DNA from: Thiohalospira sp.
GTDB taxonomy: Bacteria > Bacteroidota > Bacteroidia > Bacteroidales > UBA12077
DNA length: 64,000 nucleotides
NCBI GenBank assembly: GCA_046538755.1
Contig: JBKHIH010000008.1
Span: 15,115 to 79,114 of the forward strand
Direction: 5' to 3'
Shown: positions 5,401 through 40,723 of the stretch, piece after piece
Position numbering within the stretch: the stretch's first letter is position 1
Layout of the letters: each line of letters starts with the position of its first letter
Made by a program: the position numbers and the translations under genes
The notes under the pieces: model-generated
Seen by the model: the letters and a program-made list of their open reading frames with translations, nothing else
Database searches by the model: none
What the model was told of the DNA's origin: nothing

Positions 5401-7443
5401 ATGAAATCAAAAATTATTTTAAAATTCGCTGTAATAGCATTCATAATTATGGGAATAACAACTGCATGTCAGCAAAAAGTTGACGAAAAAACTACACTCG
5501 ATGTAAGCCTTATCGATAAAAGTTACGATCCGGCTGAAGATTTTTATCATTATGCCAATAACGGATGGATGGAAAAATATCCACTTCCGGATGACGAAAG
5601 CCGCTACGGTTCTTTTGATCAACTGGCTAAGGAAACCAGTAAAAAAGTAAAAACCGTTGTTGAAGAATTGGCTTTAAAAAAGCAAGAACAAGGTACAATT
5701 GAACAGAAAATCGGAGATTTCTATGCATTAGGTATGGATACAGATAAAATTAACGAACAAGGGTTAACACCTTTACAATCAGAATTTGAGCGCATAGCAG
5801 CTATAAAGAAAATTGATGATGTTCAAAACCAGATTGCCCATTTTCATATGCATGGAATTGGTTCATTATTTGGATTTTTTGGATCTCCCGATCCCAAAAA
5901 TAGTGATATGAACATCGCCCATATTAGCCAGGGTGGCCTGGGGATGTCTGACAGAGACTACTACACTAGCGATGATGCCCGCTCAAAAGAAATTCGGGAA
6001 GCTTATGTAAAGCATGTTGAAAAAATGCTAATCCTTAGTGGAATTTCTGAAAAAGATGCCAAAAAGAAAGCTTCAACCATTTTGGATTTGGAAACCCGAT
6101 TGGCAGAAGCATCCTTTACCCGATTGGAAAACAGAGATCCTAATGCAACATATAACAAAAAATCTCAAAAAGAGATTAAAAATCTTTACCCAAACTTCGA
6201 TTGGGATAACTACATGGCAAATATGGGTTTAGCATATGATGGCGATTTTAACATTCGTCAGCCTAAGTTTTATGAAGAAATGAATGAAATGCTTACAGAT
6301 GTTAGCATTGAGGATTGGAAAACATATTTCTATTGGAACCTTTTAAACTCCACAGCTAATTATATTGGTGATAAATTTGAAGAACAAAATTTTGATTTTT
6401 TTGGTAAAACCATGCAGGGAAGTGAACAAATGCGCGAACGCTGGAGAAGAGTATTAGCTGTTACAAACAGAGCCTTAGGAGATGCCATTGGTCAAAAATT
6501 TACCGAAAAATACTTTCCTCCAGAAGCAAAGGAACGAATGGTAAATCTTGTTGAAAATTTACGCACTGCCCTCGGCCAACGCATCGATAATTTGGAATGG
6601 ATGAGCGAAGAAACCAAAGAAAAAGCACATGAAAAATTAGCAACCATGCGGGTTAAAATAGGCTATCCAGACAAATGGGAAGATTATTCTGATTTACAAA
6701 TCAATGACAAATCATATGTTCTAAATATCTTAGAAGCCAATAAATTCAGAAGAAAAGATAATCTTAAAGATATCGGCAAACCGGTTGATAAAGACGAGTG
6801 GTTTATGACTCCACAAACCGTAAATGCATATTATGCACCATCTATGAATGAAATCTGTTTCCCGGCAGGGATTTTACAACCTCCATTTTTCTATTTGGAA
6901 GGTGATGATGCCATTAACTACGGTGCTATTGGCGCGGTTATTGGCCATGAAATGACGCATGGTTTCGACGACCAGGGAAGGCTTTACGATAAAGAAGGGA
7001 ACCTTACCAACTGGTGGACTGAAGATGACTCCAAACGTTTTGACGAACGCTCACAAGTATTGGTTGACCAGTTTAATAACATCTTTGTTCTTGATACTTT
7101 ACGTGCCGATGGCAAATTATCGCTGGGCGAGAATATTGCTGACTTAGGTGGTTTAAATATTGCTTATACCGCTTTTCAGAATGCACAAAAAGAAAACCCA
7201 CAGGAAGAATTAATTGACGGATATACTCCCGATCAACGGTTTTTCTTAAGCTGGGCAAAAGTTTGGGCTCAAAATATCCGCGATAAAGAAATTGTCCGCA
7301 GAACAAAAGAAGATGTTCATTCGTTGGGAATTAACCGTGTTCACGGGCCAATTGCCAATATGCCGGAATTTCACAAAGCATTTAATGTAGAACCAGGAGA
7401 TGCTCTTTATATCCCCGAAGAAGAGAGAGCCTCGATATGGTAA
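5401..7443 (+). CDS. M13 family (PepO/neprilysin-like) metallopeptidase, lipoprotein
   Basis: Lipobox ITTAC; motifs VNAYY, HEMTHGFDDQG and GENIADLGG. Confidence 0.94.
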   Translation: MKSKIILKFAVIAFIIMGITTACQQKVDEKTTLDVSLIDKSYDPAEDFYHYANNGWMEKYPLPDDESRYGSFDQLAKETSKKVKTVVEELALKKQEQGTIEQKIGDFYALGMDTDKINEQGLTPLQSEFERIAAIKKIDDVQNQIAHFHMHGIGSLFGFFGSPDPKNSDMNIAHISQGGLGMSDRDYYTSDDARSKEIREAYVKHVEKMLILSGISEKDAKKKASTILDLETRLAEASFTRLENRDPNATYNKKSQKEIKNLYPNFDWDNYMANMGLAYDGDFNIRQPKFYEEMNEMLTDVSIEDWKTYFYWNLLNSTANYIGDKFEEQNFDFFGKTMQGSEQMRERWRRVLAVTNRALGDAIGQKFTEKYFPPEAKERMVNLVENLRTALGQRIDNLEWMSEETKEKAHEKLATMRVKIGYPDKWEDYSDLQINDKSYVLNILEANKFRRKDNLKDIGKPVDKDEWFMTPQTVNAYYAPSMNEICFPAGILQPPFFYLEGDDAINYGAIGAVIGHEMTHGFDDQGRLYDKEGNLTNWWTEDDSKRFDERSQVLVDQFNNIFVLDTLRADGKLSLGENIADLGGLNIAYTAFQNAQKENPQEELIDGYTPDQRFFLSWAKVWAQNIRDKEIVRRTKEDVHSLGINRVHGPIANMPEFHKAFNVEPGDALYIPEEERASIW

Positions 7444-8991: not shown

Positions 8992-10452
8992 ATGAAAACA
9001 TTAGAAAAATTAAACCCCAGGGTAGTATGGAGCTATTTCGAAGATATTTGTCAGGTTCCGCGCCCATCGAAAAAAGAAGAAAAAATAATTAAATTTCTGT
9101 TAGATTTTGCTAAAGAACATCAGCTTGAAGCAAAACGCGATGATATAGGAAATATTTTAATCAAAAAACCAGCAACGCCTGGTAAAGAAAAGGTAAAAAC
9201 AGTAGTATTACAAAGCCACATCGATATGGTATGTGAAGCCAACGAGGGCACTGATCACGATTTCGATAAAGACCCCATACAACCGGTAATTGATGGCAAC
9301 TGGGTAAAAGCCAAAGGAACTACGCTTGGAGCAGATGACGGAATTGGCATTGCTGCACAAATGGCTATATTAACCGCTAACGATATTGAACACGGCCCTA
9401 TCGAGTGTTTATTTACCGTTGATGAAGAAACCGGATTAACCGGCGCGTTTGCTTTAAAGCCGGGATTTTTTGATGGAAAAATATTAATTAACCTCGACTC
9501 CGAAGATGAAGGTGAACTATTCATTGGCTGTGCAGGCGGTATCGATACATTAGCAACATTTGAATACGACACCGAAAATGTTCCTGAAAAACATGTTGGC
9601 TTGAAAATAAGTGTTACCGGACTGAATGGCGGACATTCCGGCGACGAAATTGACAAAGGGCTTGGTAATTCAGTAAAAATCATGAACCGGTTTTTATGGA
9701 ATGCTTACAATAAATTTGATGTAAAAATAGGCACTTTCGAAGGAGGAAAAGCCAGAAATGCAATTCCTCGCGAGGCTTTTGCACACATCACCGTACACCA
9801 GGATGAAAAAGAAGAATTGCTAAACTATTTTAACGAATATGCTCCGGCGATAAAGAGTGAGCTTTCGATTACCGAACCAAAACTGGAACTTTCTATCGAA
9901 GAGGCTGACTTACCAGAACTTGTTATCGATGAAGATACTCAATTTGCTTTACTAAATGGGCTGTATGCATGCCCACATGGTGTTTATGCCATGAGCCAGG
10001 AGATTAAAGGTTTAGTAGAAACTTCAACCAACCTGGCTTCCATCAAATTTATTGAAGATAACCAGATATTTATTACAACCAGCCAGCGAAGCTCGGTTGA
10101 TACTGCCAAATCTGATATCGCAAGTAAAGTAGAGAGTGTATTCCGGTTAGCCGGAGCAAAAGTTAAACATAGCGATGGATATCCCGGCTGGAGGCCTAAT
10201 ACCAATTCCAAAATCATGAAAATAACTGAACAATCGTATGAAAAATTGTTTAAAACAAAACCTATTGTAAGAGCAATTCATGCAGGTTTGGAATGCGGCT
10301 TATTTTTAGAAAAATATCCCTATTTAGATATGATTTCCTTTGGGCCAACGATTAAAGGAGCACATACACCAGAAGAGAGAATTGATATTGAAACCACAGA
10401 AAAATTCTGGGATTTGTTATTAGATGTATTAAAAAATATCCCAACCGAATAA
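8992..10452 (+). CDS. pepD: Aminoacyl-histidine dipeptidase (M20C)
   Basis: Motifs LQSHIDMVC, GTTLGADDGIG, TVDEETG, NLDSED and HAGLECG. Confidence 0.96.
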   Translation: MKTLEKLNPRVVWSYFEDICQVPRPSKKEEKIIKFLLDFAKEHQLEAKRDDIGNILIKKPATPGKEKVKTVVLQSHIDMVCEANEGTDHDFDKDPIQPVIDGNWVKAKGTTLGADDGIGIAAQMAILTANDIEHGPIECLFTVDEETGLTGAFALKPGFFDGKILINLDSEDEGELFIGCAGGIDTLATFEYDTENVPEKHVGLKISVTGLNGGHSGDEIDKGLGNSVKIMNRFLWNAYNKFDVKIGTFEGGKARNAIPREAFAHITVHQDEKEELLNYFNEYAPAIKSELSITEPKLELSIEEADLPELVIDEDTQFALLNGLYACPHGVYAMSQEIKGLVETSTNLASIKFIEDNQIFITTSQRSSVDTAKSDIASKVESVFRLAGAKVKHSDGYPGWRPNTNSKIMKITEQSYEKLFKTKPIVRAIHAGLECGLFLEKYPYLDMISFGPTIKGAHTPEERIDIETTEKFWDLLLDVLKNIPTE

Positions 10453-11374: not shown

Positions 11375-12286
11375 TTAAATTTTTATGATTTTAATCTGAT
11401 AATTTTTTTCTAGTCGATCTATCTGATCCTCACTTTTTGAAAAACCCAATAAAAATCCACCACCTCCTGCCCCACATAATTTAAGGTAAAATTTGTCTGA
11501 TTCTAATCCATATTTCCATGTGGTTTTGAATTCAGGCACAATCATTTCTTCAAAATGCCGGTATTGAAACATAGAAAGTTCTTTTAGAGAAGAAAAGAAA
11601 TTCCCAATATCTTTATTTCTTAAGAACTGAATACACTGATTATTCAAATGTAAAAATTCGGTTTTAATTATATTCTCAAATTCAGAATCCATGCATTTAT
11701 TAAGGAAAATATTCACAAAATGTTCTGTTGATCTTGCTTTTTGGGTATCAATTAAAAAGGGATGATAAATAGAAAAATCAGGATTATAAATTTGAACAGA
11801 GTTTCGTTTAACATAAAACCCTTTATTTAAATAGCTTACCAAAGGATCAAAGCCGGAGCTGTTTCCATGAAAATAAGATTCAATAAAGGCTAACGTATTT
11901 CTTAATGAAAGCCATTGATCTTTTCCCAGGTTATCAATTACTTTTTCGAAATAATTCGAAAAAATGGCTGCGGTTAAAGCACCGGAACTTCCTATGCCAT
12001 ATCCTTCAGGGATTGTAGAATTGAAAAACAATCCATTTTTAATATCCGTTTTAAACTGATTGATATTAAAAGAATGAAAAAAGGCGGAATCATTTTCAGC
12101 TTTTTCTAAATATGTAAAAAGCTGGTTTAAAACTTCATTGGATCTAATCTTAGGTTTTAAATCTTTCGAATGGCTATTAATAAAATCCAATTCTCCGGAA
12201 AATTGATTAAAAGGAATAACTAAAGCATCCGATTGATACAAAACGGCATACTCACCAAACAAAAGTATTTTAGCGTTAAATCTCAT
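11375..12286 (-). CDS. mvk: Mevalonate kinase (GHMP family)
   Basis: Motifs AKILLFGEYAV, PEGYGIGSSGAL, ESYFHGNSSGFD and KLCGAGGGGF. Confidence 0.85.
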   Translation of the reverse strand: MRFNAKILLFGEYAVLYQSDALVIPFNQFSGELDFINSHSKDLKPKIRSNEVLNQLFTYLEKAENDSAFFHSFNINQFKTDIKNGLFFNSTIPEGYGIGSSGALTAAIFSNYFEKVIDNLGKDQWLSLRNTLAFIESYFHGNSSGFDPLVSYLNKGFYVKRNSVQIYNPDFSIYHPFLIDTQKARSTEHFVNIFLNKCMDSEFENIIKTEFLHLNNQCIQFLRNKDIGNFFSSLKELSMFQYRHFEEMIVPEFKTTWKYGLESDKFYLKLCGAGGGGFLLGFSKSEDQIDRLEKNYQIKIIKI

Positions 12287-13392
12287 TCAAAAATTTGTTT
12301 TGGCCCATCTGAAATTTCATCATCGATCCATTCTCCATTTTCGCAAAATTGTATTAGCTCATTTTTAATAAAATTAACCATTTTAGCTTTTATTTTGTTC
12401 GGATACAGAATATGAACGTTTGGCCCGGCATCAAGGGTAATAGCAAAGTTAAGCCGGTTCTTTTGCCTGAATTCATTCAGTTTTTCAATAACAACTAATG
12501 TATCGGGTTTTATTAAAAATACCGAAGGATTCGAAGATAACATTAAAGCATGCAAGGTCATGGCTTCGTTTTCTACAATTTCGGCAAACAACTTCTCTCC
12601 GCCTGATTTTAGTGCTAATAGAATTTTTTCCAGGTTAACATTCGCCTGAAGATACCTTGCTTTTGCAAAAGGATGATTTTCCATGAGCACATGTCCTTTG
12701 GAACTTGAAGAAGCTTTTTGGCCCGAATCAATAATTAAAACCGCATTCCGGTAAGTTTTAAATATTTGATGCACCTGTTCATCAATTGGCATGGCGTATT
12801 CATCAGATGATTCAGGTACCGTTTCGGTTTTTCCCCACAAAACAGTTTTTCCGGAAACCGAGCGGGAGGCACTTCCTGAACCCAAACGTGCTAGAAAAGA
12901 AGCTTTTCTGTTAAATTTTTCCTTGCCGGAAAGTGTTTGAAACATTTCTTGTTCAATACTGCATAAACAATGTGCCAAAGCACTGAATGATGATGCAGAA
13001 GAAGCAATTCCTGCCGAATGTGGGAATGTATTGTGGCTGTAAATCGTAAAATCCAGATTATTAAGAAAAGGTAAATACACCGAAATCTTTTCAAAATAGC
13101 TTTTCACACGCTTTTCAAAAGGATAATTTCGTTTATCTTCAAAAAAATATTGAATATTAGATTCGCTGCTTTTTCTTTTTTGATAAATGATTTTGGTTAC
13201 TGTTTTCGAATTCTTCAAATTAAAACTCAACGACGGATTCTGTGGCAATTGATCACCTTTCTTTCCCCAGTATTTAATCAAAGCAATATTTGACGGACTC
13301 TCCCAACGCACAACTTTACTGCCCTTCATATCAAAATGATGTAATTGGGCCGCATCTTTTTTGTATTGATCAGAAATATAATGTTCGTTCAT
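12283..13392 (-). CDS. mvaD: Diphosphomevalonate decarboxylase
   Basis: Motifs SPSNIALIKYWGK, FPHSAGIASSAS, ARLGSGSASRS and TLDAGPNVH. Confidence 0.93.
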   Translation of the reverse strand: MNEHYISDQYKKDAAQLHHFDMKGSKVVRWESPSNIALIKYWGKKGDQLPQNPSLSFNLKNSKTVTKIIYQKRKSSESNIQYFFEDKRNYPFEKRVKSYFEKISVYLPFLNNLDFTIYSHNTFPHSAGIASSASSFSALAHCLCSIEQEMFQTLSGKEKFNRKASFLARLGSGSASRSVSGKTVLWGKTETVPESSDEYAMPIDEQVHQIFKTYRNAVLIIDSGQKASSSSKGHVLMENHPFAKARYLQANVNLEKILLALKSGGEKLFAEIVENEAMTLHALMLSSNPSVFLIKPDTLVVIEKLNEFRQKNRLNFAITLDAGPNVHILYPNKIKAKMVNFIKNELIQFCENGEWIDDEISDGPKQIFE

Positions 13393-14303
13393 AAAACCAG
13401 TGTTTTATAAGAAAGAATTACATCCAAACCTTTTCTATTAAAATAGTTTTTCACATCGTCCGATTCACCCTTATAAGTTGCCATCACAAAATCACCACCC
13501 CACGCTCCCAGTGATTTCACAGCGCCTTTAAAATCCGGAAAATATTTTGATTTTACAGTTGATTCGTTGATGCTTTTTGAAATGATTTCTTCATGCTCAT
13601 TGATGTAATTTTCAAATTCATCCAATGTTTTCGACTCAACCACAGCGCGTGTTAATTTAGTGATTTTGTCTATCTCGCTTTTTTTAGCTTTTATTTTAGC
13701 TTTATTCGTTCGAACGCTTCTTAACGAATCCTGCTTTTTACCTAAGTACACAAAATATATTTTATTCAAAAAATCAGGTTCAAATTTCACAGAATTAATT
13801 ATTGGTTTATCTTTATATTGATACAAAATAACACTATCAGAGCGTGCACAGGCTATATCATAACCCGAGCCTTCAAATAATGAAAAAAATAACTCATATG
13901 GATTGATATCGGCCCACCACGCCAGGTTAGAAATTAAGGATGAACTACTTCCCAAACCCCATTCGGGCAAAAATTCAAGCTGTGTTTTGATTTGAATAGC
14001 CATATTTTCAGACAGAACATCGCTCTTATCTTTAATATAATTCAACAGTTTTTGAAGGTAGTTTGCAATATATAAATCGTTTGTATCGATGATATCTAAA
14101 GAATTATAATCGTAAGTAGCTAAAAACCATAATTTGTTATTAATGTAAGATTCCCACTTAATTTCGGGTTTTGCATCTTTATGTTTTTCAACAAATAGGT
14201 GTTGACCCGATTTTAAAGGCACAGCCAATGCCAGCGACCCTTCCATTACGAAGTATTCTCCGGTTAACAACAATTTACCATTTGAATAAAACGAATGACT
14301 CAT
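13389..14303 (-). CDS. GYDIA-family GHMP kinase (probable Bacteroidota-type phosphomevalonate kinase)
   Basis: Motifs SNGKLLLTGEY, WGLGSSS, GSGYDIACA and KSLGAWGGDF; lies between HMGR and mvaD. Confidence 0.85.
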   Translation of the reverse strand: MSHSFYSNGKLLLTGEYFVMEGSLALAVPLKSGQHLFVEKHKDAKPEIKWESYINNKLWFLATYDYNSLDIIDTNDLYIANYLQKLLNYIKDKSDVLSENMAIQIKTQLEFLPEWGLGSSSSLISNLAWWADINPYELFFSLFEGSGYDIACARSDSVILYQYKDKPIINSVKFEPDFLNKIYFVYLGKKQDSLRSVRTNKAKIKAKKSEIDKITKLTRAVVESKTLDEFENYINEHEEIISKSINESTVKSKYFPDFKGAVKSLGAWGGDFVMATYKGESDDVKNYFNRKGLDVILSYKTLVL

Positions 14304-15628
14304 CTTACGGAATTTACTTTTATTGATGCCAAATATTCCTGAACCGCTTTGTGCGAGACTTTCCTGTCTTTAAAATAGGCTGTGGCTTTTTCTTTCTCCG
14401 TTTCATCAGCATTGAGTGAATTAAGAATATTATTCAAGTGAAAACGCATATGTCCTTTCTGAATTCCGGATGTTGTAAGCGCTTTGATCGCAGAAAAAGT
14501 ATTGGCCAAACCTGCGGCTGCTGTTATTTCCATTAATTCGCGAGCCGATGGATTATCTAATATCTCCATGGAAAGTTTAGCCAGCGGATGCATGTTGGTT
14601 AATCCGCCAACAGTACCCAGTGCCATTGGGATTTTCAAAGTATACCTGAATTTTCCATCACTAATATCGGCACAAGTTAAACTTTTATAGTGTCCGTCAC
14701 TGGAAGCATAAGAATGGCCACATGCTTCAACTGCCCTGAAATCATTGCCTGTAGCAAGTACCACAGCATCAATACCATTGTATATGCCCTTATTGTGGGT
14801 TGTTGCCCTGTAAATATCAATATTGGCTATATCCACAGCCGTTTTAAACTTACGTGCAAATTCTTCAGGCGGTAATTCTCCGGATATTTCAGACAAATGA
14901 TCAATTGGGCATTCGACAGAACATTCCACGATACTCTCCGGCGTGTGGTTCGATAAAATAGCCATGATAATTTCACAACTTTTTCCGTTCCCGGTAAAAT
15001 GATTATCCATATACTGTTTTAAAGTATCAGACATTTGCTCCAACACCGAATTAATAATATTGGCGCCCATAGCATCAGCAGTTTCGAAAGAAACTTTTAA
15101 CTGGTAATAACCTTCTAATTGATCAGTAAAATCAATAAGTTCAATATTTGTAACTCCGCCACCGCGCTTTTTCATATTTGCAAGCAAAGATTCAGAATCT
15201 TTAATCAATTGATTTTTAAGATTATCCAATTGATTCAATAAAACTGCAAAATCGCCATTCCAATGAAAATGCACCTGTCCCACTTTGGTTGTAGATAGAA
15301 CATTGGACTTAAATCCGCCTTTATCGAACCAGAATTTGGCAGCAGCAGATGCAGCGGCAACAACCGAACTTTCTTCAATCACCATCGGCACAAAATAGTA
15401 TTTTCCGTTGATCAAAAAATTCGGAGCAATACTGAAAGGTAGAAAGTAATTGGACATTACATTTTCGCTGATTTCTTCCAGCCTTGACTGAATATGATGA
15501 TCGTTTACCTTAAACTCATCCAAAATCTTAAAATTCTCTGTTTCTTTATTTTGCTGATTAGCAATTAATTCAAGCTTTTCCTGGTTACTTAATTTCGAAA
15601 ATCCACTTATATATTTAAATTGTGTCAT
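14300..15628 (-). CDS. mvaA: Class II HMG-CoA reductase
   Basis: Motifs EESSVVAA, DAMGAN, THNKG, GNDFRAVEA and GIQKGHM. Confidence 0.94.
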   Translation of the reverse strand: MTQFKYISGFSKLSNQEKLELIANQQNKETENFKILDEFKVNDHHIQSRLEEISENVMSNYFLPFSIAPNFLINGKYYFVPMVIEESSVVAAASAAAKFWFDKGGFKSNVLSTTKVGQVHFHWNGDFAVLLNQLDNLKNQLIKDSESLLANMKKRGGGVTNIELIDFTDQLEGYYQLKVSFETADAMGANIINSVLEQMSDTLKQYMDNHFTGNGKSCEIIMAILSNHTPESIVECSVECPIDHLSEISGELPPEEFARKFKTAVDIANIDIYRATTHNKGIYNGIDAVVLATGNDFRAVEACGHSYASSDGHYKSLTCADISDGKFRYTLKIPMALGTVGGLTNMHPLAKLSMEILDNPSARELMEITAAAGLANTFSAIKALTTSGIQKGHMRFHLNNILNSLNADETEKEKATAYFKDRKVSHKAVQEYLASIKVNSVR

Positions 15629-15744
15629 GGTTTATTTCTTTGTTGTTATGTCCGTTTTTATATCCTTAGTATTTATATTAATAAAAATCAATTAGTTTAC
15701 CCCTTAACCCTGAAGGGAGCAAATTGATTTTTACACACATTTTA

Positions 15745-15764
15745 CTACCGAAAGATTTCGGTAG
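15745..15764. repeat. REP-like palindrome (TMCCGA-N6-TCGGKA family)
   Basis: CTACCGAAA-GA-TTTCGGTAG has the same 18-nt core layout as 21932-21949 and 28839-28856. Confidence 0.55.
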
Positions 15765-15783
15765 GAGTAAATAAAGAAAATCA

Positions 15784-16779
15784 TTATTCTTTTATCGTTA
15801 AATAGGCATAAGCCATTTGCAAACCTTTTATCTGATACTGAATATATTCTTTTAATTTTTCATAATCTTCGCGAGCATAGCGTAGCATCGTTGATGCCTG
15901 CCCATAAATTGAAGGTAAATTGCTTTTTTTCATCAGGTAATATCCATCTAAAAAAGATTTTATTCCGCCCGAAATAATAATCTGTTTACATTTTATGTCA
16001 TTCGAATTTTCGACAATGGTGTTGATATCATCAATCATTTGTTCTGCACTATTTCCTACTTTCGAAAAAGGTTCCAGCATTTCATTAACAATCGGTAAAC
16101 TACGTTTCAATTCCACTTTCGAAAAATTGGTTCCGCCATAAGCGCCCAGCTCTATTGCTTCCAATGGCAGTTTCAACAGTTCTTTCAAACTTTCAGGCCC
16201 AAAGCCCTGCCCTACTTCTTTTACAATGACTTTTAGCTTTGATTTTTCCAAAAATGACCGAATCGTTTCTATCGGAGATTGAACCAAAACATCACCTTCG
16301 GGTTGCAACCATTCCTGTATCGGGTTTACATGAATCACCAATCCATCAGCACGTAGTTTTGTAACCAGATCAACAATTTCCTGAACTTTATTTTGAACAA
16401 TAGCCTGTTCAATCTGACTAATCCCTAAATTGGCATAAAACGGATATTGATCGCCAATCATATCTCTTAAATCGAAATGACTCAGGTATTCGTCGCTTTC
16501 CAGCAAAGTACGGCACGATCCTAATCCCATGCCTAATCCAAACTCATTGCAGGCTCTGGCTAAATTGGTGTTAATAATTTTTGCATATTCTGTTCCGCCT
16601 GTCATACTAGAAATCCACAACGGATAATTCATTGTTTTACCCAAAAATTGAATCGACAAATCGCTCTTCTTAGGATGCGGTTTTAACATCGGTTCGTAAT
16701 TAAACCGGTTGTCGTGCTCAATTACTGATGTCTGTGAATTTAAGGCCAAATCAATATGGTCTTTTTTCCGTTTTTCCAT
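15784..16779 (-). CDS. fni: Type 2 isopentenyl-diphosphate delta-isomerase (FMN-dependent)
   Basis: Motifs RKKDHI, ISSMTGG, MGLGS, HVNPIQE..QPEGD, VKEVGQG and GGTNF. Confidence 0.93.
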   Translation of the reverse strand: MEKRKKDHIDLALNSQTSVIEHDNRFNYEPMLKPHPKKSDLSIQFLGKTMNYPLWISSMTGGTEYAKIINTNLARACNEFGLGMGLGSCRTLLESDEYLSHFDLRDMIGDQYPFYANLGISQIEQAIVQNKVQEIVDLVTKLRADGLVIHVNPIQEWLQPEGDVLVQSPIETIRSFLEKSKLKVIVKEVGQGFGPESLKELLKLPLEAIELGAYGGTNFSKVELKRSLPIVNEMLEPFSKVGNSAEQMIDDINTIVENSNDIKCKQIIISGGIKSFLDGYYLMKKSNLPSIYGQASTMLRYAREDYEKLKEYIQYQIKGLQMAYAYLTIKE

Positions 16780-16789
16780 AACTTAAGAT

Positions 16790-17950
16790 TTAAATCCCCA
16801 TCTCTTTGCCGATAACCATTTTTAAAATCTCCGACGTTCCTTCTCCTATACTTAATATTCGCTGGTCGCGATAAAACCTTTCAATATCATTATCTTTAAA
16901 TAAGCCATATCCGCCAAAAATCTGAACCGCTTCGTCGGCAATTTCCCTGGCAATTTCAGATGTATACAATTTAGCTATGGCCGCCTGTTTGGCAAATGGC
17001 TGTTCATTATCTTTTAACCAGCAGCTGGTATAAAGATAGTTTCGTGCCAGTTCGATTTTCACTTCCATATCAACCAGTTTGTGAGAAATAACCTGAAATT
17101 GATTCAGGCTGGAACCAAATTGTTTTCGTCGCATCGAATAATCTTTAGCCATATCCAAAGCGCCTTGTGCCAGGCCCAGGCCAATTGCAGCAACAGAAAG
17201 CCTTCCGGCATCGAGTGTTTCCAAAATAATTCGTAAGCCCTTACCCTGTTTGCCCAAAAGGTTTTCTTTGGGTATTTTGGTATTATTAAAGGTAAGCCGC
17301 CCTGTATCAGCAGCACGCCATACCATTTTATTTTTAATACTTTCGGCCTGATATTTTGATTTATCTCTTTCTACTAAAATAGCAGAGTATTCCTTTTTGT
17401 TTGGATCACTGCTTGTATTCGTCAATAATGTAACTCCCATAGAAACAGCTGAAGCCGAATTGGTGATAAATATTTTTTGCCCGTTTACCACCCAGTAATT
17501 GTTTTCTAACCTGGCTGTGGTTTCTATTGCTTTAGCATCGGATCCTGCATTGGGTTCGGTTAAACCAAAACCCCATATATATTGGCCGGTAGTTAATTTG
17601 CGCAACAATCGCTGTCTTTGATCATCCGTTCCGTATTTAAAAATTGGCGACAATCCTAATGAGTTATGCGCAGCAACTGTAGCTGCTTGCGAACTATCGA
17701 TCCGAGCCAGCTCTTCAACAGCAATAATATAAGATAGCATATCCATATCTTGCCCGCCATATTCTTTTGGAATAGTTATTCCGAACAATCCCAGTTGTCC
17801 CATTTTTAGGGTTATCTCCGGCGAAAATTCAGAATGCTCGTCTAATTTCTGGGCGAATGGTTTTATTTCCTGTATCGCAAATTCTCTAACTTGCGACCTT
17901 AACTTTTCGTGTTTCTCGTTTAATAATGGATGAAATATATTTTTAATCAT
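16790..17950 (-). CDS. Acyl-CoA dehydrogenase (probably branched-chain/isovaleryl-CoA, by context)
   Basis: Motifs FGLTEPNAGSD, NGQKIFITN, RKQFG, VQIFGGYG and IGEGTSE; adjacent to LiuB/LiuC-like genes. Confidence 0.88.
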   Translation of the reverse strand: MIKNIFHPLLNEKHEKLRSQVREFAIQEIKPFAQKLDEHSEFSPEITLKMGQLGLFGITIPKEYGGQDMDMLSYIIAVEELARIDSSQAATVAAHNSLGLSPIFKYGTDDQRQRLLRKLTTGQYIWGFGLTEPNAGSDAKAIETTARLENNYWVVNGQKIFITNSASAVSMGVTLLTNTSSDPNKKEYSAILVERDKSKYQAESIKNKMVWRAADTGRLTFNNTKIPKENLLGKQGKGLRIILETLDAGRLSVAAIGLGLAQGALDMAKDYSMRRKQFGSSLNQFQVISHKLVDMEVKIELARNYLYTSCWLKDNEQPFAKQAAIAKLYTSEIAREIADEAVQIFGGYGLFKDNDIERFYRDQRILSIGEGTSEILKMVIGKEMGI

Positions 17951-17980
17951 TATCCGTTTATTTTATAATAAATACTCAAA

Positions 17981-18775
17981 TCATTTACTGTTGTTCCACG
18001 CCGGTTTTCTTTTCTCTAAAAATGCCGAAATACCTTCGAATGCTTCTTCCGATATTTTCAAACCCGCAATTGAATTTGCCGTTAAATCATTCATTTGATC
18101 ATGATTCAATCCTTTTTTTAGCTCTCTGATTAAAAACTTAATTTCTTTAATCCCATTGGGAGATGCTTTTAAAAGATCGTTAATTAAAGATTCAATGGTT
18201 AACTCAATTTCTTTATCATCTACTACAAAATCCACCAGGTGATAGTTCATCGCTTCGTTGGCAGATATTCTTTTCCCTGTAATCATCAAAAATTTGGCTT
18301 TGTGCTCGTTTAAACGGGTAAGCACATAAGGCAAAATGGTTGATGGTGCAAGGCCAATTTTGACTTCAGAAAATGAAAATACAGAATCTTTTTTGGCAAG
18401 GACAATATCAGCTGCTGCTAACAATCCGTTCCCGCCGCCAAAAACATTTCCGGTTGCGACTGCAATAACTGGTTTTGAACAATGGTAAATCTTACTTAAA
18501 CAATCAGTCCAAAGCTTCCCATCTTGCAAGTTTTCATCAAACCCAGATTTGTTCTTTTCCAGCATCTTTTTTAAATCTGCTCCGGCGCTGAACGATTTGC
18601 CTTTTCCCCTTAGAATAATTACACGAACATGATGATCATTTTCCAAAAGCTGAAAAATTGATATCAACTCCCGAAGCATTTCATTGTTTACCGCATTCTG
18701 TACATCAGGCCTGTTCAGCCAAACCGTTGCGGCATAATCTTGAATGTCAACTTTTATGTTACTATAATCTCTCAT
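17981..18775 (-). CDS. Enoyl-CoA hydratase family, probable methylglutaconyl-CoA hydratase (LiuC-like)
   Basis: Motifs LNRPDVQNA, FSAGADL, GNVFGGGNGLLAAAD, FSEVKIGLAP and EGISAFLEKRKPAW. Confidence 0.85.
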   Translation of the reverse strand: MRDYSNIKVDIQDYAATVWLNRPDVQNAVNNEMLRELISIFQLLENDHHVRVIILRGKGKSFSAGADLKKMLEKNKSGFDENLQDGKLWTDCLSKIYHCSKPVIAVATGNVFGGGNGLLAAADIVLAKKDSVFSFSEVKIGLAPSTILPYVLTRLNEHKAKFLMITGKRISANEAMNYHLVDFVVDDKEIELTIESLINDLLKASPNGIKEIKFLIRELKKGLNHDQMNDLTANSIAGLKISEEAFEGISAFLEKRKPAWNNSK

Positions 18776-18780
18776 TTCAA

Positions 18781-20412
18781 CTACATCCGGTAAATTCCGG
18801 GTTTATAATCAGGTATTTCTTTATTAGCAGCTATTGAAAGTCCCAGAGCAATCATTTTGCGCGTATCCACCGGATCAATAATTCCATCGTCCCAAATCCG
18901 GGAAGTACTAAAATAAGCTGAACCTTCCTGCTCATATCTTTCAGTAATCTGCTTTTTTAACTCATCTTCGTTGTCAGAGCCATTTTTCTTAACACTCCAT
19001 AATACTTCTGCTGCCTGGCGGCCTCCCATAACAGAAATTTTAGCATTGGGCCAGGTAAACAGTAAATTCGGATGATAAGCTCTGCCTGCCATGGCATAAT
19101 TTCCTGCACCATGCGATCGCCCATAAATAATGGTAATTTTGGGAACATTGGTATTGGCTACAGCATGAACCATTTTAGCTCCATCCTTTGCAATTCCTTT
19201 ATGCTCGGCATCTTTGCCTACCATAAATCCCGAGATGTTATGTAAGAAAACCAATGGTATTTTTCGAATACTGCACATTTCAATAAAGTGTGTTCCTTTT
19301 AAAGCCGATTCGGAAAATAGCACTCCGTTATTTGCTATAATACCAATAGTTTGGCCTTTAATTTTTGCAAACCCGGTAACCAGGGTTTTTCCGTAATTCG
19401 GTTTAAATTCCTGGAATTTACTTCCGTCAACCAATCGGGCAATAATTTCGTAAGGATCCATCCAACGAGAACTTTGTGAATGAATAATACCATATAACTC
19501 CTTTGCGGGATACAATGGTTCTTCAACTTTCTCAGAGCGTTGGACTGACTTTTTAGGTTTTGGCAAATTTTCAAAAATATTCCTGCACATCTGAATGGCT
19601 TCTTCTTCAGTTTTTGCCAAATAATCCGCAACACCCGAAATGTGCGTATGTGCATAAGCACCCCCTAAATCTTCGGCCGAAATGGTTTCTCCAATTGCAG
19701 CTTTCACCAGTGGAGGCCCTGCTAAAAATATGGTTCCCTGATTTTCCACTATTATCGATTCATCGCTCATTGCCGGAATATAAGCTCCACCTGCAGTACA
19801 AGAACCCATAACCATAGCTATTTGAGGAATTCCTGCTGCCGATAAACGTGACTGATTATAAAAAATTTTTCCAAAATGCTCCCTGTCGGCAAAAACATTA
19901 GCCTGTTCAGGCAGAAAAACCCCACCCGATTCAACAATATAAACACAAGGCAGATGATGCTCATAAGCAATTTCCTGTGCCCGTAAATGCTTTTTTATTG
20001 TTTCGTTTACGTAAGTTCCACCCTTAACCGTAGGATCATTAGCAATTATTATACTCTCAATACCCTGAATGATTCCAATTCCGGTTACAATTCCGGCAGA
20101 ATAAAATTTACCTTCGTACAAATCATTGGTAGCCAAAGCAGAAAATTCATAAAACTCTGTTTCAGAATCAATTAATGCATTAATCCTTTCCCTGGCTAAC
20201 CATTTCCCTTTTGATTTGTGCTTCTGAACGTAAGGGTCATCATTCCTTTCAGTTGTTTTTTGCAACTTGTTTTTGAAATCATCTATAATCTGAAGGGTTT
20301 CGTTATAATTGCTTTTATATTCGTCAGAACCTGATTTAACTTTAGACTTTATAACTGTTAAATCATTCAACCCATTTGCTTTAAAGTAGTTAAGTGTTGC
20401 TGTTAAATTCAT
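18781..20412 (-). CDS. Methylcrotonyl-CoA carboxylase carboxyltransferase (beta) subunit (LiuB/MccB-like)
   Basis: Motifs ANDPTVKGGTY, KKHLRAQEIA, GSCTAGGAY, GIAKDGAKMV, WDDGIIDP and terminal GIYRM. Confidence 0.92.
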   Translation of the reverse strand: MNLTATLNYFKANGLNDLTVIKSKVKSGSDEYKSNYNETLQIIDDFKNKLQKTTERNDDPYVQKHKSKGKWLARERINALIDSETEFYEFSALATNDLYEGKFYSAGIVTGIGIIQGIESIIIANDPTVKGGTYVNETIKKHLRAQEIAYEHHLPCVYIVESGGVFLPEQANVFADREHFGKIFYNQSRLSAAGIPQIAMVMGSCTAGGAYIPAMSDESIIVENQGTIFLAGPPLVKAAIGETISAEDLGGAYAHTHISGVADYLAKTEEEAIQMCRNIFENLPKPKKSVQRSEKVEEPLYPAKELYGIIHSQSSRWMDPYEIIARLVDGSKFQEFKPNYGKTLVTGFAKIKGQTIGIIANNGVLFSESALKGTHFIEMCSIRKIPLVFLHNISGFMVGKDAEHKGIAKDGAKMVHAVANTNVPKITIIYGRSHGAGNYAMAGRAYHPNLLFTWPNAKISVMGGRQAAEVLWSVKKNGSDNEDELKKQITERYEQEGSAYFSTSRIWDDGIIDPVDTRKMIALGLSIAANKEIPDYKPGIYRM

Positions 20413-20524: not shown

Positions 20525-21523
20525 TTAAATTAATTTATAGATTACCACATCAATGATTAATCCTAACAAAAACAGCATTCCAAATGACCGATTAAAGACA
20601 AACGCTCTGTGAACCAAATACAAAGGCCATCCACGGCCTAATTCACCTTCAGGTGCTGTTTCAGGACGTTTTTTTGCCATCACTTTTGTTTCCCTAATGA
20701 ATTTAGGAATAGATAATAAAACCAATAAAATTGCAGGGCCTAACTGAGCTGTAACCACTAAATAAATAACTAAAGCATATTGCAAAACCCACAATCCGAT
20801 TACTGAATATCGTGATGCTTTTTCACCAATAATTACAGGTAAAGTTTTAATACCTTTGGCTTTATCTTCTTCCAGTTTATCGGTATGCTTACCCAGTAAA
20901 ACGGTTGTCGGTCCAAAAGCATATACAAGACTTACCAAAGCAACCCAGTTACTCCATTCACCACCCGAAACAACAAAATAAGTTCCGCCAATCATTAGTG
21001 GTCCCCAAACTAAGACAACAGAAATTTCTCCTAATCCAAAATACTTCAAAGGCCAGGTATAAAAAAGTAAAAAAAACAAACCGGGAATCAATACCCATAG
21101 TGTTTGTAATCCTACATGGTAAGTTATCATTAATCCTGCAAACAGTGCCAGTAATCCGGTTACCACAATAAAAGCAATAAATTTACCCTTCGTCATAAAG
21201 CCGTTTTCCAATGGATGTGGCCCATATTGTGCCCGGTAGTAATTATCTTTATCCACTCCTTTTTTATAGTCTACATAATCGTTTAGCAGATTATTAGTGG
21301 CATGTGCCAACACCAAACCAAAAAAGCTTAACACAAATATTGGCCATGAAAAATTTCCATCGCGATAAGCTAATAAACCGCCAATACCGGCAGCAATAGC
21401 TGTCATAATAAATACAGCGGCACGACTGGCAATAAGCCAGCGAGAAATTAAATCGTAACTATTCCACTCTTCTTTTGTAACTCTTGGAATTACCCGTAAA
21501 GCATTTATCCATATTTTAAACAT
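20525..21523 (-). CDS. UbiA/MenA-family prenyltransferase (1,4-dihydroxy-2-naphthoate prenyltransferase-like)
   Basis: Motifs NLLNDYVDYKKGVD, PLKYFGLGE and D..EDKAKGIKTL; multiple TM helices. Confidence 0.85.
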   Translation of the reverse strand: MFKIWINALRVIPRVTKEEWNSYDLISRWLIASRAAVFIMTAIAAGIGGLLAYRDGNFSWPIFVLSFFGLVLAHATNNLLNDYVDYKKGVDKDNYYRAQYGPHPLENGFMTKGKFIAFIVVTGLLALFAGLMITYHVGLQTLWVLIPGLFFLLFYTWPLKYFGLGEISVVLVWGPLMIGGTYFVVSGGEWSNWVALVSLVYAFGPTTVLLGKHTDKLEEDKAKGIKTLPVIIGEKASRYSVIGLWVLQYALVIYLVVTAQLGPAILLVLLSIPKFIRETKVMAKKRPETAPEGELGRGWPLYLVHRAFVFNRSFGMLFLLGLIIDVVIYKLI

Positions 21524-21754: not shown

Positions 21755-21832
21755 ATGAGTTTACAATTTGTACATACCGTTCATCATCACCATCATCATG
21801 CTGGTAATTGCAACGTATGCAAATTTTTGTAG
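21755..21832 (+). CDS. His attenuator leader peptide 1 (MSLQFVHTVHHHHHHAGNCNVCKFL)
   Basis: Hand translation gives 25 aa with 7 His (6 consecutive) and an A-rich start context (AAAAATG). It is followed by a terminator and lies upstream of hisG. Confidence 0.9.
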   Translation: MSLQFVHTVHHHHHHAGNCNVCKFL

Positions 21833-21855
21833 ATTCCTAAAAATATTTAACACAT

Positions 21856-21887
21856 AAAAGGGCTTGCAAATTTTGCAGGCCTTTTTT
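21856..21887 (+). terminator. His attenuator terminator 1
   Basis: AAAAG-GGCTTGCAA-ATT-TTGCAGGCC-TTTTTT. Confidence 0.85.
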
Positions 21888-21909
21888 CATTTAAACCCTA
21901 TTAAACATA

Positions 21910-21969
21910 TTGATTTTTTGGCTCCCTTTAGTCCCGAAAACTTTCGGGAGGGGCAAAACAAAAAATCAA
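21910..21969. repeat. Nested inverted repeat with a REP-like core between the two His attenuators
   Basis: Outer TTGATTTTTTG (21910-21920) pairs with CAAAAAATCAA (21959-21969). The inner core is TCCCGAAA-AC-TTTCGGGA (21932-21949). Confidence 0.65.
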
Positions 21970-21983
21970 ATAAAAGAAACATC

Positions 21984-22052
21984 ATGAACCAAAAACATCA
22001 TCATATCCATCATCATTCGAGTGAAAAACACACCCGGCGGAAGATACTATGA
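21984..22052 (+). CDS. His attenuator leader peptide 2 (MNQKHHHIHHHSSEKHTRRKIL)
   Basis: 22 aa with 7 His (HHHIHHH plus one more), followed by a second terminator just upstream of hisG. Confidence 0.88.
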   Translation: MNQKHHHIHHHSSEKHTRRKIL

Positions 22053-22081
22053 CTATATTTTAAGTTCTCAATAAGAAATTT

Positions 22082-22112
22082 AAAGGTCTGCAGTTCTCTG
22101 CAGGCCTTTTTT
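22082..22112 (+). terminator. His attenuator terminator 2
   Basis: AAAGGTCTGCAG-TTCT-CTGCAGGCCTTTTTT, ending 23 nt before the hisG ATG. Confidence 0.88.
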
Positions 22113-22135
22113 ATTTAACATAAATAATAAAGAAA

Positions 22136-38211: not shown

Positions 38212-38703
38212 CTATCGTTTCACAATTTTATAGGTTTGCAATAACGCTCCAGATTTATCAGATACCTTTAAAATGTATTGTGATGAGGCTAACCCCTCAA
38301 GGTTGATTTTAAATGGGGCTTCAATGTATTGCCATTGTTCGTTTAAAACCATTTTACCATCCAAATCATACAGTTCGATTAAGGCAGATTTAATCTCGTC
38401 GGATTCAATTGAAATGTAAATATATTCAGTAGCTGGATTAGGATAAACTTCTAATTCGACATTACTAAGCATTGGATCTTCAATAGAAGTAATTTCAAAA
38501 TATCCATGCTGAAATCCCTGATTTAGAGTAACAGAAGATGACTCAAGGGTTTCGATTGCAATTTCGCCTAAAGTCCAACTAACACCTAATTCTGAAGTTT
38601 CAGAATTTTCTCCTGCTGTTGCTATAACCTGTGAGGATATACTTTGTCCAAAAGAATTTCCAACTAGGAAACTGGCAACAAAAAATAATATTATTTTTTT
38701 CAT
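38212..38703 (-). CDS. Small secreted protein with T9SS type-A C-terminal sorting domain
   Basis: Signal peptide, SWTLGE...LNQGFQ, VYPNP...YDLDGK...YILKV and terminal KIVKR. Confidence 0.88.
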   Translation of the reverse strand: MKKIILFFVASFLVGNSFGQSISSQVIATAGENSETSELGVSWTLGEIAIETLESSSVTLNQGFQHGYFEITSIEDPMLSNVELEVYPNPATEYIYISIESDEIKSALIELYDLDGKMVLNEQWQYIEAPFKINLEGLASSQYILKVSDKSGALLQTYKIVKR

Positions 38704-38765
38704 GATTCCGGGTTTTTTATGATTGTTTAAATATACAAAATTAAAAAGTCAAATTCAATATGCTG

Positions 38766-39335
38766 TTACATACCAAGTCTCTTTTTTAATTTAACTGAAA
38801 TCTGATTAAAAAGAATTTGTGGCGATAAACTCCGCCAGTTGAAATGATCAAATTCATTGCTAAATGCGATATAATAATCAATATTATTATTAACGAACTC
38901 ATTTTTTACATGGGGTTGAAAATTAATACCTATAATCCAACCTTCGGAAATATCATCAAACCATTCTTCATAATATGAATCATCCGAGGCATGAAAATTT
39001 AAGATATTCTCACCAATTAAAATAAATTTATCAATGCCATAGTTAACTAAATGATCAATTATTTCACGCTTTAAAAACATAATGTCATTGTACAAAGTAT
39101 CATTCCACTCACCTAAAAATTCAATAATAGTAAAACCTTTTTCATAATCAGTAAACAAAATTTTAAGGTATAATGTTTCCGAACCAAAATCATCCCACTG
39201 AGGATGAATTAAATAATTATAAATGGCATGCGTAAATTCAAATTCACTATATATTCTTCCATAAAAGGGAGAACGCTCATCCTCTGATGCAATATAATAC
39301 TTACGCCATGAATAAAAGGGTTCAAGAAGATGCAT
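38766..39335 (-). CDS. Conserved hypothetical Bacteroidota protein
   Basis: 189-aa ORF (EPFYSWR..Y, IYNYLIHPQWDDFGSETLY); function unknown. Confidence 0.75.
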   Translation of the reverse strand: MHLLEPFYSWRKYYIASEDERSPFYGRIYSEFEFTHAIYNYLIHPQWDDFGSETLYLKILFTDYEKGFTIIEFLGEWNDTLYNDIMFLKREIIDHLVNYGIDKFILIGENILNFHASDDSYYEEWFDDISEGWIIGINFQPHVKNEFVNNNIDYYIAFSNEFDHFNWRSLSPQILFNQISVKLKKRLGM

Positions 39336-39420
39336 AACATTTTACCTCAAATATTTTAAAATTATTGTTAATCAATAAAAATAATCTTTATTTTTACATA
39401 AATTTAAAATCTTCATTGCT

Positions 39421-40605: not shown

Positions 40606-40723
40606 ATAGTTATATAAATACTAAACTTAACCAAAGGGAAACATCCATGAGAATAGAGTTCAGACATACGAGCATGAGTATTATGGATGTTCCATCTGAC
40701 AATAAAAAATAAAATATAAAAAG

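Follow-up and report, generated by a model that had tools for sequence, protein, structure and literature searches.

A probable leucine shunt into the mevalonate pathway in a Bacteroidales gene cluster

In a Bacteroidales genome from a microbial mat, a run of eight co-oriented minus-strand genes joins a leucine-catabolic set to a mevalonate-pathway set (Table 1). We read this cluster, with a probability of about two in three given its sequence, as a hard-wired shunt of leucine (or isovalerate) into the mevalonate pathway, which is taught as starting from acetyl-CoA via HMG-CoA synthase (HMGS). In such a shunt, the acyl-CoA dehydrogenase (ACAD) would oxidize isovaleryl-CoA to 3-methylcrotonyl-CoA, MCC-beta would catalyze its carboxylation to 3-methylglutaconyl-CoA, and the crotonase would hydrate this product to HMG-CoA. 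HMG-CoA would then escape cleavage by a lyase and be reduced to mevalonate by class II HMG-CoA reductase (HMGR), with Mvk, the GYDIA kinase, MvaD, and IDI-2 leading on to IPP and DMAPP. These leucine-fed isoprenoid units would form a second supply alongside the MEP pathway. We infer the direction of flux, the substrates, and co-transcription from gene content and gene order.

The window that we analyzed is a 64,000-nucleotide stretch of this genome, in which the cluster (positions 11375-20412) was delineated from the list of open reading frames (ORFs) and family searches. Gaps of 5, 30, and 10 nt separate the first four genes, MCC-beta to IDI-2, and HMGR, the GYDIA kinase, MvaD, and Mvk overlap their neighbors by 4 nt each. 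ORF coordinates and family searches thus bear out the eight-gene run, the gene identities, and the spacing described in an earlier note on this DNA. Its claim that the window holds no HMGS, thiolase, or lyase agrees with our scan, in which ORFs of at least 100 aa gave no match to these families. The 155-nt gap between IDI-2 and HMGR is absent from the earlier description. Purifying selection acts on all genes (dN/dS 0.04-0.25); MCC-beta has the lowest values of the eight (0.04-0.07), comparable only to those of the UbiA-family gene upstream (0.041-0.044).

Table 1. The gene cluster, its internal spacer, and the adjoining upstream gene, in window coordinates.
Feature	Position	Strand	Size and evidence
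UbiA-family prenyltransferase, MenA/UBIAD1-like	20525-21523	-	PF01040 118 bits
MCC-beta (carboxyltransferase; LiuB equivalent)	18781-20412	-	543 aa; PF01039 486 bits
Crotonase-fold hydratase, likely 3-methylglutaconyl-CoA hydratase (LiuC equivalent)	17981-18775	-	264 aa; PF00378 164 bits
Acyl-CoA dehydrogenase (ACAD), isovaleryl-CoA dehydrogenase step inferred	16790-17950	-	386 aa; all three ACAD domains
Type 2 isopentenyl-diphosphate isomerase (IDI-2)	15784-16779	-	331 aa; TIGR02151 202 bits
155-nt spacer, two hairpins	15629-15783	-	sequence reading and fold
Class II HMG-CoA reductase (HMGR)	14300-15628	-	442 aa; PF00368 287 bits
GYDIA-family GHMP kinase, presumed phosphomevalonate kinase of Bacteroidota	13389-14303	-	304 aa; NF040656 345 bits
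Diphosphomevalonate decarboxylase (MvaD)	12283-13392	-	369 aa; PF22700 and PF18376 matches
Divergent mevalonate kinase (Mvk)	11375-12286	-	303 aa; GHMP N and C domains

On the mevalonate side, HMGR scores 271 bits against TIGR00532 (cut-off 259.95), placing it in class II, and the GYDIA kinase exceeds its family cut-off of 225 bits, with no solved relative found by sequence. IDI-2 falls below the TIGR02151 cut-off of 281 bits, and all five of its solved-structure matches at E<=1e-10 are type 2 IDIs. MvaD scores 143 bits against TIGR01240 (cut-off 171), with 17 of 17 solved matches at E<=1e-15 being diphosphomevalonate decarboxylases, while Mvk scores 84.9 bits against TIGR00549 (cut-off 163) and has two solved matches, both mevalonate kinases (E = 3e-7 and 5e-6). 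Together with the crotonase, IDI-2, MvaD, and Mvk make four genes below NCBIfam cut-offs, which counts against our reading. The roles of the Bacteroidetes kinases rest on Hayakawa 2017, as cited in PMC6107057.

On the leucine side, the carboxyltransferase is nearest to MCC-beta: its matches to solved chains of that subunit score 586-600 bits, against 407 bits for geranyl-CoA carboxylase beta and no more than 272 bits for PCC-beta. In a full Bacteroidales liu operon that ends in a lyase (genome G027), the hydratase sits where the crotonase does here, and the ACAD of that operon shares 60% identity with the one in the window. The top NCBIfam match of the crotonase is gamma-carboxygeranoyl-CoA hydratase (208.8 bits, below the cut-off of 426), and its structure matches include a solved AtuE-like hydratase. 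Such matches, and the AtuA genes in related clusters of two genomes (G017 and G039), would fit an Atu-like module that recycles acyclic terpenoids or prenols, in which isoprenoid-derived acids such as dimethylacrylyl-CoA, and not leucine, yield HMG-CoA for re-synthesis. We consider this the least probable reading, and a very improbable one: the transferase is far nearer to MCC-beta than to geranyl-CoA carboxylase beta, neither the window nor the remaining genome holds AtuA, and a pathway entered at isovaleryl-CoA requires the conserved ACAD, whereas one entered at dimethylacrylyl-CoA does not.

Among solved structures, the ACAD matches Bcd/SCAD best (283-328 bits) and isovaleryl-CoA dehydrogenase (IVD) less well, at 232-237 bits. 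It is not a canonical IVD orthologue, and synteny alone suggests that it acts as an isovaleryl-CoA dehydrogenase; its greater similarity to the reductive Bcd/SCAD enzymes counts against our reading. Directly upstream of MCC-beta, 112 nt away on the same strand, lies the UbiA-family prenyltransferase gene. Its best NCBIfam matches are prenyltransferase/MenA models (83-97 bits, all below cut-offs), and its sole solved relative is UBIAD1. A UbiA gene with 79-94% identity adjoins the cluster in three other loci (L022, L024, and L038), and its adjacency to MCC-beta is kept only in the clade that lacks MCC-alpha.

We searched the remainder of the genome (G000; 99.75% complete) for the enzymes that would make or consume HMG-CoA. 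In this genome the best TIGR01835 match for HMGS reaches 36 bits and PF08540 has none; for HMG-CoA lyase, NF004283 gave no match at E<=1e-10 and PF00682 gave two partial matches only, the one annotated being a PycB/OadA-like protein. The genome-wide absence of mvaS and of the lyase, which the earlier note had proposed to check, is thereby established at this level of completeness. The genome also has no LeuA-type HMGL match, so leucine probably comes from outside; elsewhere it encodes supporting enzymes, namely EtfAB together with an Fe-S/CCG partner, as well as a fused E1 2-oxoacid dehydrogenase. Since the MEP genes dxs, dxr, and ispH are present, the cluster would provide an auxiliary, second route to IPP and not the sole one, and a leucine-fed route is dispensable in principle, a point against our reading. 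The sequence-based checks that the earlier note named as able to refute its operon from leucine to IPP all turned out in its favor, and the idea is supported, now in the role of a second route.

We surveyed 201 genomes drawn evenly from the order, with cross-tabulations made by hand and with related genomes in the draw not being independent samples. HMGR occurs in 58 of these genomes, none of which has an HMGS-like gene. The same search finds HMGS in 10 HMGR-positive genomes of other orders of Bacteroidia, and is therefore able to detect it; outside the order, HMGS is absent from 26 of 36 HMGR-positive genomes. MCC-beta is present in 56 of the 58 HMGR-positive genomes versus 34 of 143 without HMGR, with no match to MCC-beta reaching E<=1e-130 in the two exceptions (G070 and G099). 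MCC-beta and HMGR share a contig, 4-8 kb apart, in 25 of the 58 genomes, from about 21 families, answering in the affirmative the earlier question of whether the gene order is conserved; the linkage is also seen in named strains, among them Tangfeifania diversioriginum and Carboxylicivirga mesophila. The order CT-ECH-MCCalpha-ACAD-IDI2-HMGR-GYDIA-MvaD-Mvk is found in six other loci (L028, L057, L060, L086, L100, and L108). Recurrence of the gene order of the cluster in many families puts the arrangement beyond chance.

A lyase-like gene is present in 0 of 25 genomes with linked MCC-beta and HMGR, versus 21 of 33 unlinked HMGR-positive genomes and 27 of 34 genomes with MCC-beta but no HMGR. This pattern supports the proposal, made in the earlier note, that HMGR takes the place of the lyase. 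Seven genomes with MCC-beta but no HMGR also lack a lyase, so absence of the lyase alone does not force flux into HMGR.

Two independent modules could instead lie merely side by side, with the liu genes serving leucine/isovalerate catabolism or another purpose and HMG-CoA coming from an unrecognized, non-homologous synthase. A non-homologous substitute has been proposed for Flavobacterium lacking HMGS (HMGCS; PMC12016392), and MCC-beta and HMGR are not on the same contig in 33 of the 58 HMGR-positive genomes. Moreover, 217 of 251 genomes of the class have an MCC-beta-like transferase irrespective of whether they have HMGR, a tally that includes two genomes flagged as unpublished (G404 and G320). 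In the window, the two halves are parted by the spacer between IDI-2 and HMGR, which contains two hairpins with a U-run after the second (fold -31.7 kcal/mol, z = -2.74), has no Rfam match, and is not repeated elsewhere in the genome. The corresponding gap is less than about 10 nt in the three genus mates compared (including L022 and L024), making the 155-nt hairpin spacer specific to this genome. It could act as a terminator or attenuator within the cluster, so the two halves of the cluster may not share one transcript. Even so, we regard independent modules as unlikely: IDI-2 follows the ACAD by 10 nt and sits among the liu genes, the linkage extends over those many families with the lyase missing from every linked genome, and a liu module with neither lyase nor HMGR would have no outlet. 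Candidates for a substitute synthase are also poor, since the three FabH-like matches in the genome are weak (31-36 bits) and the one examined sits in a DarB/StlD-type secondary-metabolite cluster.

MCC-alpha (biotin carboxylase and BCCP, LiuD) is found neither among the window ORFs nor in the genome. It is present in the operon of other families and has been lost in the clade of the window. The earlier note had proposed a search of the whole genome for MCC-alpha and BCCP; the single biotin carboxylase of the genome is located in another operon. Of five other genomes without the alpha subunit, two have one biotin carboxylase and three have none found (G013, 94% complete; G018, 100%; and G473). 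The lack of MCC-alpha in the genome and its clade counts against our reading, in which MCC-beta would have to obtain carboxybiotin without an alpha subunit of its own, the likeliest source being the genome's only stand-alone biotin carboxylase with BCCP.

These features could also suit a flow in the opposite direction. Myxococcus xanthus has an alternative route to isovaleryl-CoA, MvaS-LiuC-AibA/B-AibC, which likewise links HMG-CoA, 3-methylglutaconyl-CoA, and isovaleryl-CoA and has a LiuC-type hydratase in common with our cluster; it runs the opposite way, however, requires MvaS, and uses a CoA-transferase-like decarboxylase instead of a biotin enzyme. By analogy, after dehydration of HMG-CoA, MCC-beta would act as a decarboxylase with no biotin carboxylase involved, and the Bcd-like ACAD would then reduce the product to isovaleryl-CoA, a primer of iso-branched fatty acids. 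The affinity of the ACAD to Bcd/SCAD, the lack of MCC-alpha here, and the three alpha-less genomes with no biotin carboxylase found agree with this proposal, as do three HMGR-negative genomes in which an HMGS-like gene accompanies MCC-beta (G033, where it is beside a crotonase; G050, where the two are 6 kb apart; and G071). We nevertheless find reversed flow very unlikely. With HMGS missing from this genome and from every HMGR-positive genome of the order, HMG-CoA would have no source, and mevalonate, as is well established, cannot be regenerated from IPP. Furthermore, a full alpha subunit with biotin carboxylase and BCCP, as in the clusters of other families, is needless for a decarboxylase; an ATP-grasp biotin carboxylase inside the operon makes sense only for the forward, carboxylating direction.

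The proposed leucine shunt has partial precedents. The Pseudomonas liu operon, liuABCDE, serves leucine/isovalerate utilization and likewise holds MCC-beta, hydratase, and ACAD in one operon; our window, by contrast, lacks LiuD (MCC-alpha) and LiuE (lyase), has an ACAD that is no IVD orthologue, and shows the operon running on into mevalonate genes. Yamauchi in 2010 is said to have dealt with a leucine shunt into mevalonate. Tracers have proven such a shunt in Leishmania mexicana and Halobacterium salinarum (PMC8791446, section 3.1.2), with the same chemistry from leucine through isovaleryl-CoA, 3-methylcrotonyl-CoA, 3-methylglutaconyl-CoA, and HMG-CoA to mevalonate. In those organisms the shunt coexists with a normal HMGS and is not known as an operon, whereas here it is proposed from one gene cluster, in a bacterial host that has MEP genes but no HMGS or lyase. 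In the archaeon Calditenuis, which has an archaeal mevalonate variant, channeling of branched-chain amino acids into mevalonate has been proposed from the genome, with leucine entering via MCC and HMG-CoA; the relevant passages of that paper (PMC12979851) describe neither a fused operon nor a loss of HMGS. Flavobacterium and other Bacteroidota also combine class II HMGR and GYDIA-type kinase genes with a frequent absence of HMGS, and the account of the missing HMGCS in Flavobacterium leaves the source of HMG-CoA open, with no mention of leucine in the passages concerned (PMC12016392). The chemistry of the leucine shunt is thus already known, while its form as a bacterial operon without HMGS appears to be new, as we found no hard-wired bacterial operon of this kind in the literature.

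More speculatively, leucine/isovaleryl-CoA could be the regular entry into mevalonate in Bacteroidota that lack HMGS, and the sole entry in lineages without Dxr, such as many Flavobacteriales. One example is a genome of 2.1 Mb and 100% completeness (G152) with MCC-beta present and no Dxr, HMGS, or lyase; no Dxr was found in Flavobacterium faecale, and HMGR has no liu genes next to it in the Flavobacteriales loci. The same tentative proposal would have MCC-beta of the alpha-less clade charged without a dedicated biotin carboxylase. The charge would be supplied by a shared BCCP or else, by way of the PycB/OadA-like biotinyl protein, from oxaloacetate in an ATP-independent transcarboxylation.

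Overall, a large bacterial order carries mevalonate genes without the synthase. In many families these genes are physically joined to genes of leucine catabolism, and it is precisely the genomes with this fusion that lack the competing lyase. For engineering terpenoid production from leucine, which a review describes as not yet built in E. coli (PMC8791446), the cluster would be a natural template. A leucine shunt would change what is concluded from 13C-leucine and lipid-isotope measurements in mats and sediments, and offers a concrete, cheaply testable answer to the question of the missing HMGCS in Bacteroidota, as posed in 2025 (PMC12016392). A reason for organisms with the MEP pathway to retain a second route is also suggested, in that leucine from peptides would be reused, and a second advantage may lie in a path that bypasses the Fe-S enzymes IspG and IspH, whose vulnerability is raised in PMC4026382.

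The operon comprises eight ORFs, and both the ORF layout and the family assignments bear out the earlier note, which had listed the same eight genes and described a mevalonate operon without HMG-CoA synthase (HMGS), headed by leucine-catabolism (liu) genes. In gene order, gaps of 5, 30 and 10 nt are followed by a gap of 155 nt and three 4-nt overlaps. Against other solved chains, the operon's methylcrotonyl-CoA carboxylase beta subunit (MCC-beta) scores 407 bits (geranyl-CoA carboxylase beta) and at most 272 bits (propionyl-CoA carboxylase beta). Of the eight genes, MCC-beta also shows the strongest constraint, with a dN/dS of 0.04-0.07, matched only by the upstream UbiA gene. The gene immediately upstream of the operon encodes a MenA/UBIAD1-like prenyltransferase.

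Features of the window, its genome (G000) and compared loci (G, genomes; L, extracted loci; C, contigs; positions without a prefix are those of the window)
Feature	Position	Strand	Observation
Operon	11375-20412	minus	eight ORFs
MCC-beta	1st gene	minus	solved human / Pseudomonas MCC-beta chains, 600 / 586 bits
Crotonase	2nd gene	minus	top NCBIfam model the related gamma-carboxygeranoyl-CoA hydratase, below cut-off
Acyl-CoA dehydrogenase (ACAD)	3rd gene	minus	Bcd/SCAD (283-328 bits) above isovaleryl-CoA dehydrogenase (232-237 bits)
IDI-2	4th gene	minus	
Spacer	15629-15783		between IDI-2 and HMGR
Class II HMG-CoA reductase (HMGR)	5th gene	minus	above NCBIfam cut-off
GYDIA-family GHMP kinase	6th gene	minus	above NCBIfam cut-off
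Diphosphomevalonate decarboxylase	7th gene	minus	
Divergent mevalonate kinase	8th gene	minus	
PepO peptidase	5401-7443		
PepD peptidase	8992-10452		
S46 peptidase	C88		
Region upstream of hisG	21784-22114		sub-threshold Rfam matches to His/Thr leaders and STnc370
Terminator-like hairpin	22082-22109		strong; upstream of hisG
hisG	22136-22993		
Proteins with T9SS sorting domains	38212-47410		two proteins (163 aa, 1201 aa) with C-terminal sorting domains; beside them large ORFs (394 aa, 997 aa) without family match
Ketosynthase cluster	C64:68155-74624 (L122)		StlD/DarB-family ketosynthase, two crotonases, PPTase, thioesterase, 3-hydroxyacyl-CoA dehydrogenase, FlxJ-like methyltransferase
Second UbiA-family gene	C88:23994-25001 (L118 9995-11002)		best models archaeal-type prenyltransferase / geranylgeranylglycerol-phosphate geranylgeranyltransferase (245.8 and 230 bits, below cut-offs)
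accD, accA, carboxyltransferase	C108:1356-5055 (L020, L004)		third gene, at C108:3118-5055, PycB/OadA-like, 645 aa, with C-terminal biotinyl domain
AtuA-family protein (Pfam)	L030 13832-15661 (G017)		609 aa, between MCC-alpha and ACAD
Unannotated ORF	L031 6870-8687 (G039)		605 aa, where L030 has the AtuA-family protein
HMGS-like gene and MCC-beta	G050 C1:56841-65184		6 kb apart

The 155-nt spacer, missing from the earlier description, contains two predicted hairpins, with a U-run after the second (fold z = -2.74). It is single-copy in the genome, and the corresponding gap in genus mates is below about 10 nt; the insertion may be an internal terminator or an attenuator. Rfam gave no match in the operon's intergenic regions, the spacer included, and a scan for sigma-70 promoters and terminators, whose model does not cover Bacteroidota promoters, found sites no commoner than in shuffled sequence. 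Outside the operon, the region upstream of hisG may function as a histidine attenuator, here in a member of the Bacteroidota.

The window corresponds to C85:15115-79114 of an assembly of 3.73 Mb (156 contigs, 99.75% complete), which we searched for the enzymes below. No HMGS was found: the best TIGR01835 match reaches 36 bits, among FabH-like genes, and PF08540 has none. A FabH-like gene that lies with two crotonases on C64 was ruled out as a hidden HMGS, being part of a DarB/StlD-type cluster that probably makes a pigment of the dialkylresorcinol or flexirubin type. A genome-wide family search likewise found no HMG-CoA lyase. Of the MEP genes, dxs, dxr and ispH each score above their cut-offs, and judged from these three the pathway very probably works. 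The single biotin carboxylase (BC) belongs to a CT-BC-BCCP operon on C108, with BC and BCCP at C108:16848-19041, so the genome has no MCC-alpha. Elsewhere the genome encodes EtfB and EtfA, together with an Fe-S/CCG partner. It also has a second ACAD and a 2-oxoacid dehydrogenase with a fused E1; this set is plausible as an electron outlet and a source of isovaleryl-CoA. PF00682 has only two matches, both partial, of which the one annotated is the PycB/OadA-like protein; a LeuA-type isopropylmalate synthase therefore seems absent, and the organism may thus be a leucine auxotroph. The runs listed as containing the window stretch are all of DNA and none of RNA; they come from mat, marine and sediment metagenomes, microbial mat labels among them.

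Among 41 related genomes, the window's own included, HMGR occurs in nine, all of which carry an MCC-beta orthologue. HMGS above cut-off was found in none of the 41, with a weak 109-bit match in one HMGR-negative genome (G033). The gene order is repeated exactly in three genus mates and is cut at IDI-2 in a fourth. HMGR of G018 looks truncated at its N terminus, which is due to a scaffold gap of N. In a genome of another family (G034) the order is CT-ECH-MCCalpha-ACAD-IDI2-HMGR-GYDIA-MvaD-Mvk, where CT is MCC-beta and ECH the crotonase. Public genomes outside the window's genus were scanned with a GYDIA alignment; of the 80 loci returned, nine have liu genes adjoining mevalonate genes. The set is complete in six loci (L038; L057, Tangfeifania diversioriginum DSM 27063; L060; L086; L100, Carboxylicivirga mesophila JCM 18290; L108, Saccharicrinis), all except L038 including MCC-alpha, and a contig end interrupts it in the other three (L050, L059, L105). 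The three named carriers checked have Dxr and MCC-beta, and HMGS was not found in them. The liu-mevalonate order is thus conserved in genus mates and in loci of other families. The remaining GYDIA loci (Flavobacteriales, Saprospiraceae, Bacteriovoracaceae, further Bacteroidales) have mevalonate genes alone nearby. The liu-type cluster of L030 has neither mevalonate genes nor a lyase. Bacteriovoracaceae MAGs (L042, L044, L046, L099, L102) carry an IDI2-HMGR-GYDIA-MvaD-Mvk block with a GYDIA kinase 38-44% identical, a resemblance that suggests transfer between phyla. In one such genome (G045), Dxr and HMGS were not found and MCC-beta is 57% identical.

We then drew 201 genomes evenly from the order (about 148 families) and crossed the resulting tables by hand. 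HMGR was found in 58 genomes, an MCC-beta orthologue in 90, an HMGS-like gene in 3, a lyase-like gene in 50 and Dxr in 194. MCC-beta accompanies HMGR in 56 of 58 genomes (the misses being G070 and G099), against 34 of 143 HMGR-negative genomes, and all three HMGS-like genes lie in HMGR-negative genomes (0/58 with HMGR). In 25 of the 58, from about 21 families, MCC-beta and HMGR are linked, at a distance of 4-8 kb on a single contig. A lyase was seen in 0/25 linked genomes, 21/33 unlinked HMGR-positive genomes and 27/34 genomes with MCC-beta and no HMGR; like the other counts of this draw, these describe a pattern rather than test it statistically, related genomes not being independent. The outlet of the liu module is thus either lyase or HMGR, as expected from the proposal that HMGR replaces the lyase. 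None of the 25 linked genomes lacks Dxr; it is missing from seven genomes of the draw, five of them with HMGR (G123, G129, G152, G179, G191).

Across 251 genomes drawn from the whole class, HMGR occurs in 38. Among the 36 of these outside the order, HMGS-like genes were found in 10, which confirms that the HMGS search can detect the enzyme, and not found in 26. HMGS and Dxr were both not found in Flavobacterium faecale and one Bacteriovoracaceae MAG. Since an MCC-beta-like transferase (45-50% identical) is nearly universal regardless of HMGR (217/251, including G404 and G320, which are flagged as unpublished and serve no other claim), its co-occurrence with HMGR is uninformative at this level.

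A reverse, myxobacterial-type route requires HMGS, which was found in no HMGR-positive genome. The ATP-grasp biotin carboxylase embedded in the operons of other families argues for carboxylation, and hence for a forward flux in which isovaleryl-CoA is turned into HMG-CoA. HMGS-like genes (106-111 bits) and MCC-beta do occur together in three HMGR-negative genomes, G033 (L037, L034), G050 and G071, which may use the reverse route to isovaleryl-CoA; in G033 the HMGS-like gene adjoins a crotonase and an OadA-like biotinyl protein.

The forward reading of the operon raises the charging of an MCC-beta that has no alpha subunit. In the MCC-beta tree, the alpha-less sequences (the window, G022, G018, G023, L038) are monophyletic (98/100), and MCC-alpha is lost in the window's clade; the tree shows this monophyly only and does not separate a single from a multiple origin of the linked clusters. 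The alpha-less enzyme may share the housekeeping BC/BCCP, as actinobacterial carboxylases do, or its biotin may be charged in another way. A single biotin carboxylase was found in each of G022 and G023, and none in G013, G018 or the L038 genome; the PCC-like transferase next to this carboxylase is likewise missing from G013 and G018. One candidate for an alternative charging of biotin is the PycB/OadA-like biotinyl protein after accD-accA on C108; its presence, together with the single biotin carboxylase of this genome and the lack of any found in some close relatives, hints at oxaloacetate-driven transcarboxylation.

The leucine shunt into mevalonate is a named route, tracer-proven in Leishmania and Halobacterium (PMC8791446). 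For an archaeon it has been proposed on genomic grounds (PMC12979851). A 2025 paper reports that HMGCS is missing in some Flavobacterium and asks for a substitute (PMC12016392), and a term count of Hoshino and Gaucher 2018 (PMC6107057) gives no mention of leucine. A literature search without subscription papers or supplements turned up neither an account of a fused liu-mva operon nor any work that derives Bacteroidota mevalonate from leucine. Overall, comparative genomics supports the leucine-shunt interpretation of the earlier note. The shunt itself being already known, what these gene comparisons support as new is a predicted operon-encoded leucine shunt in Bacteroidales that lack HMGS and lyase and keep the MEP pathway.
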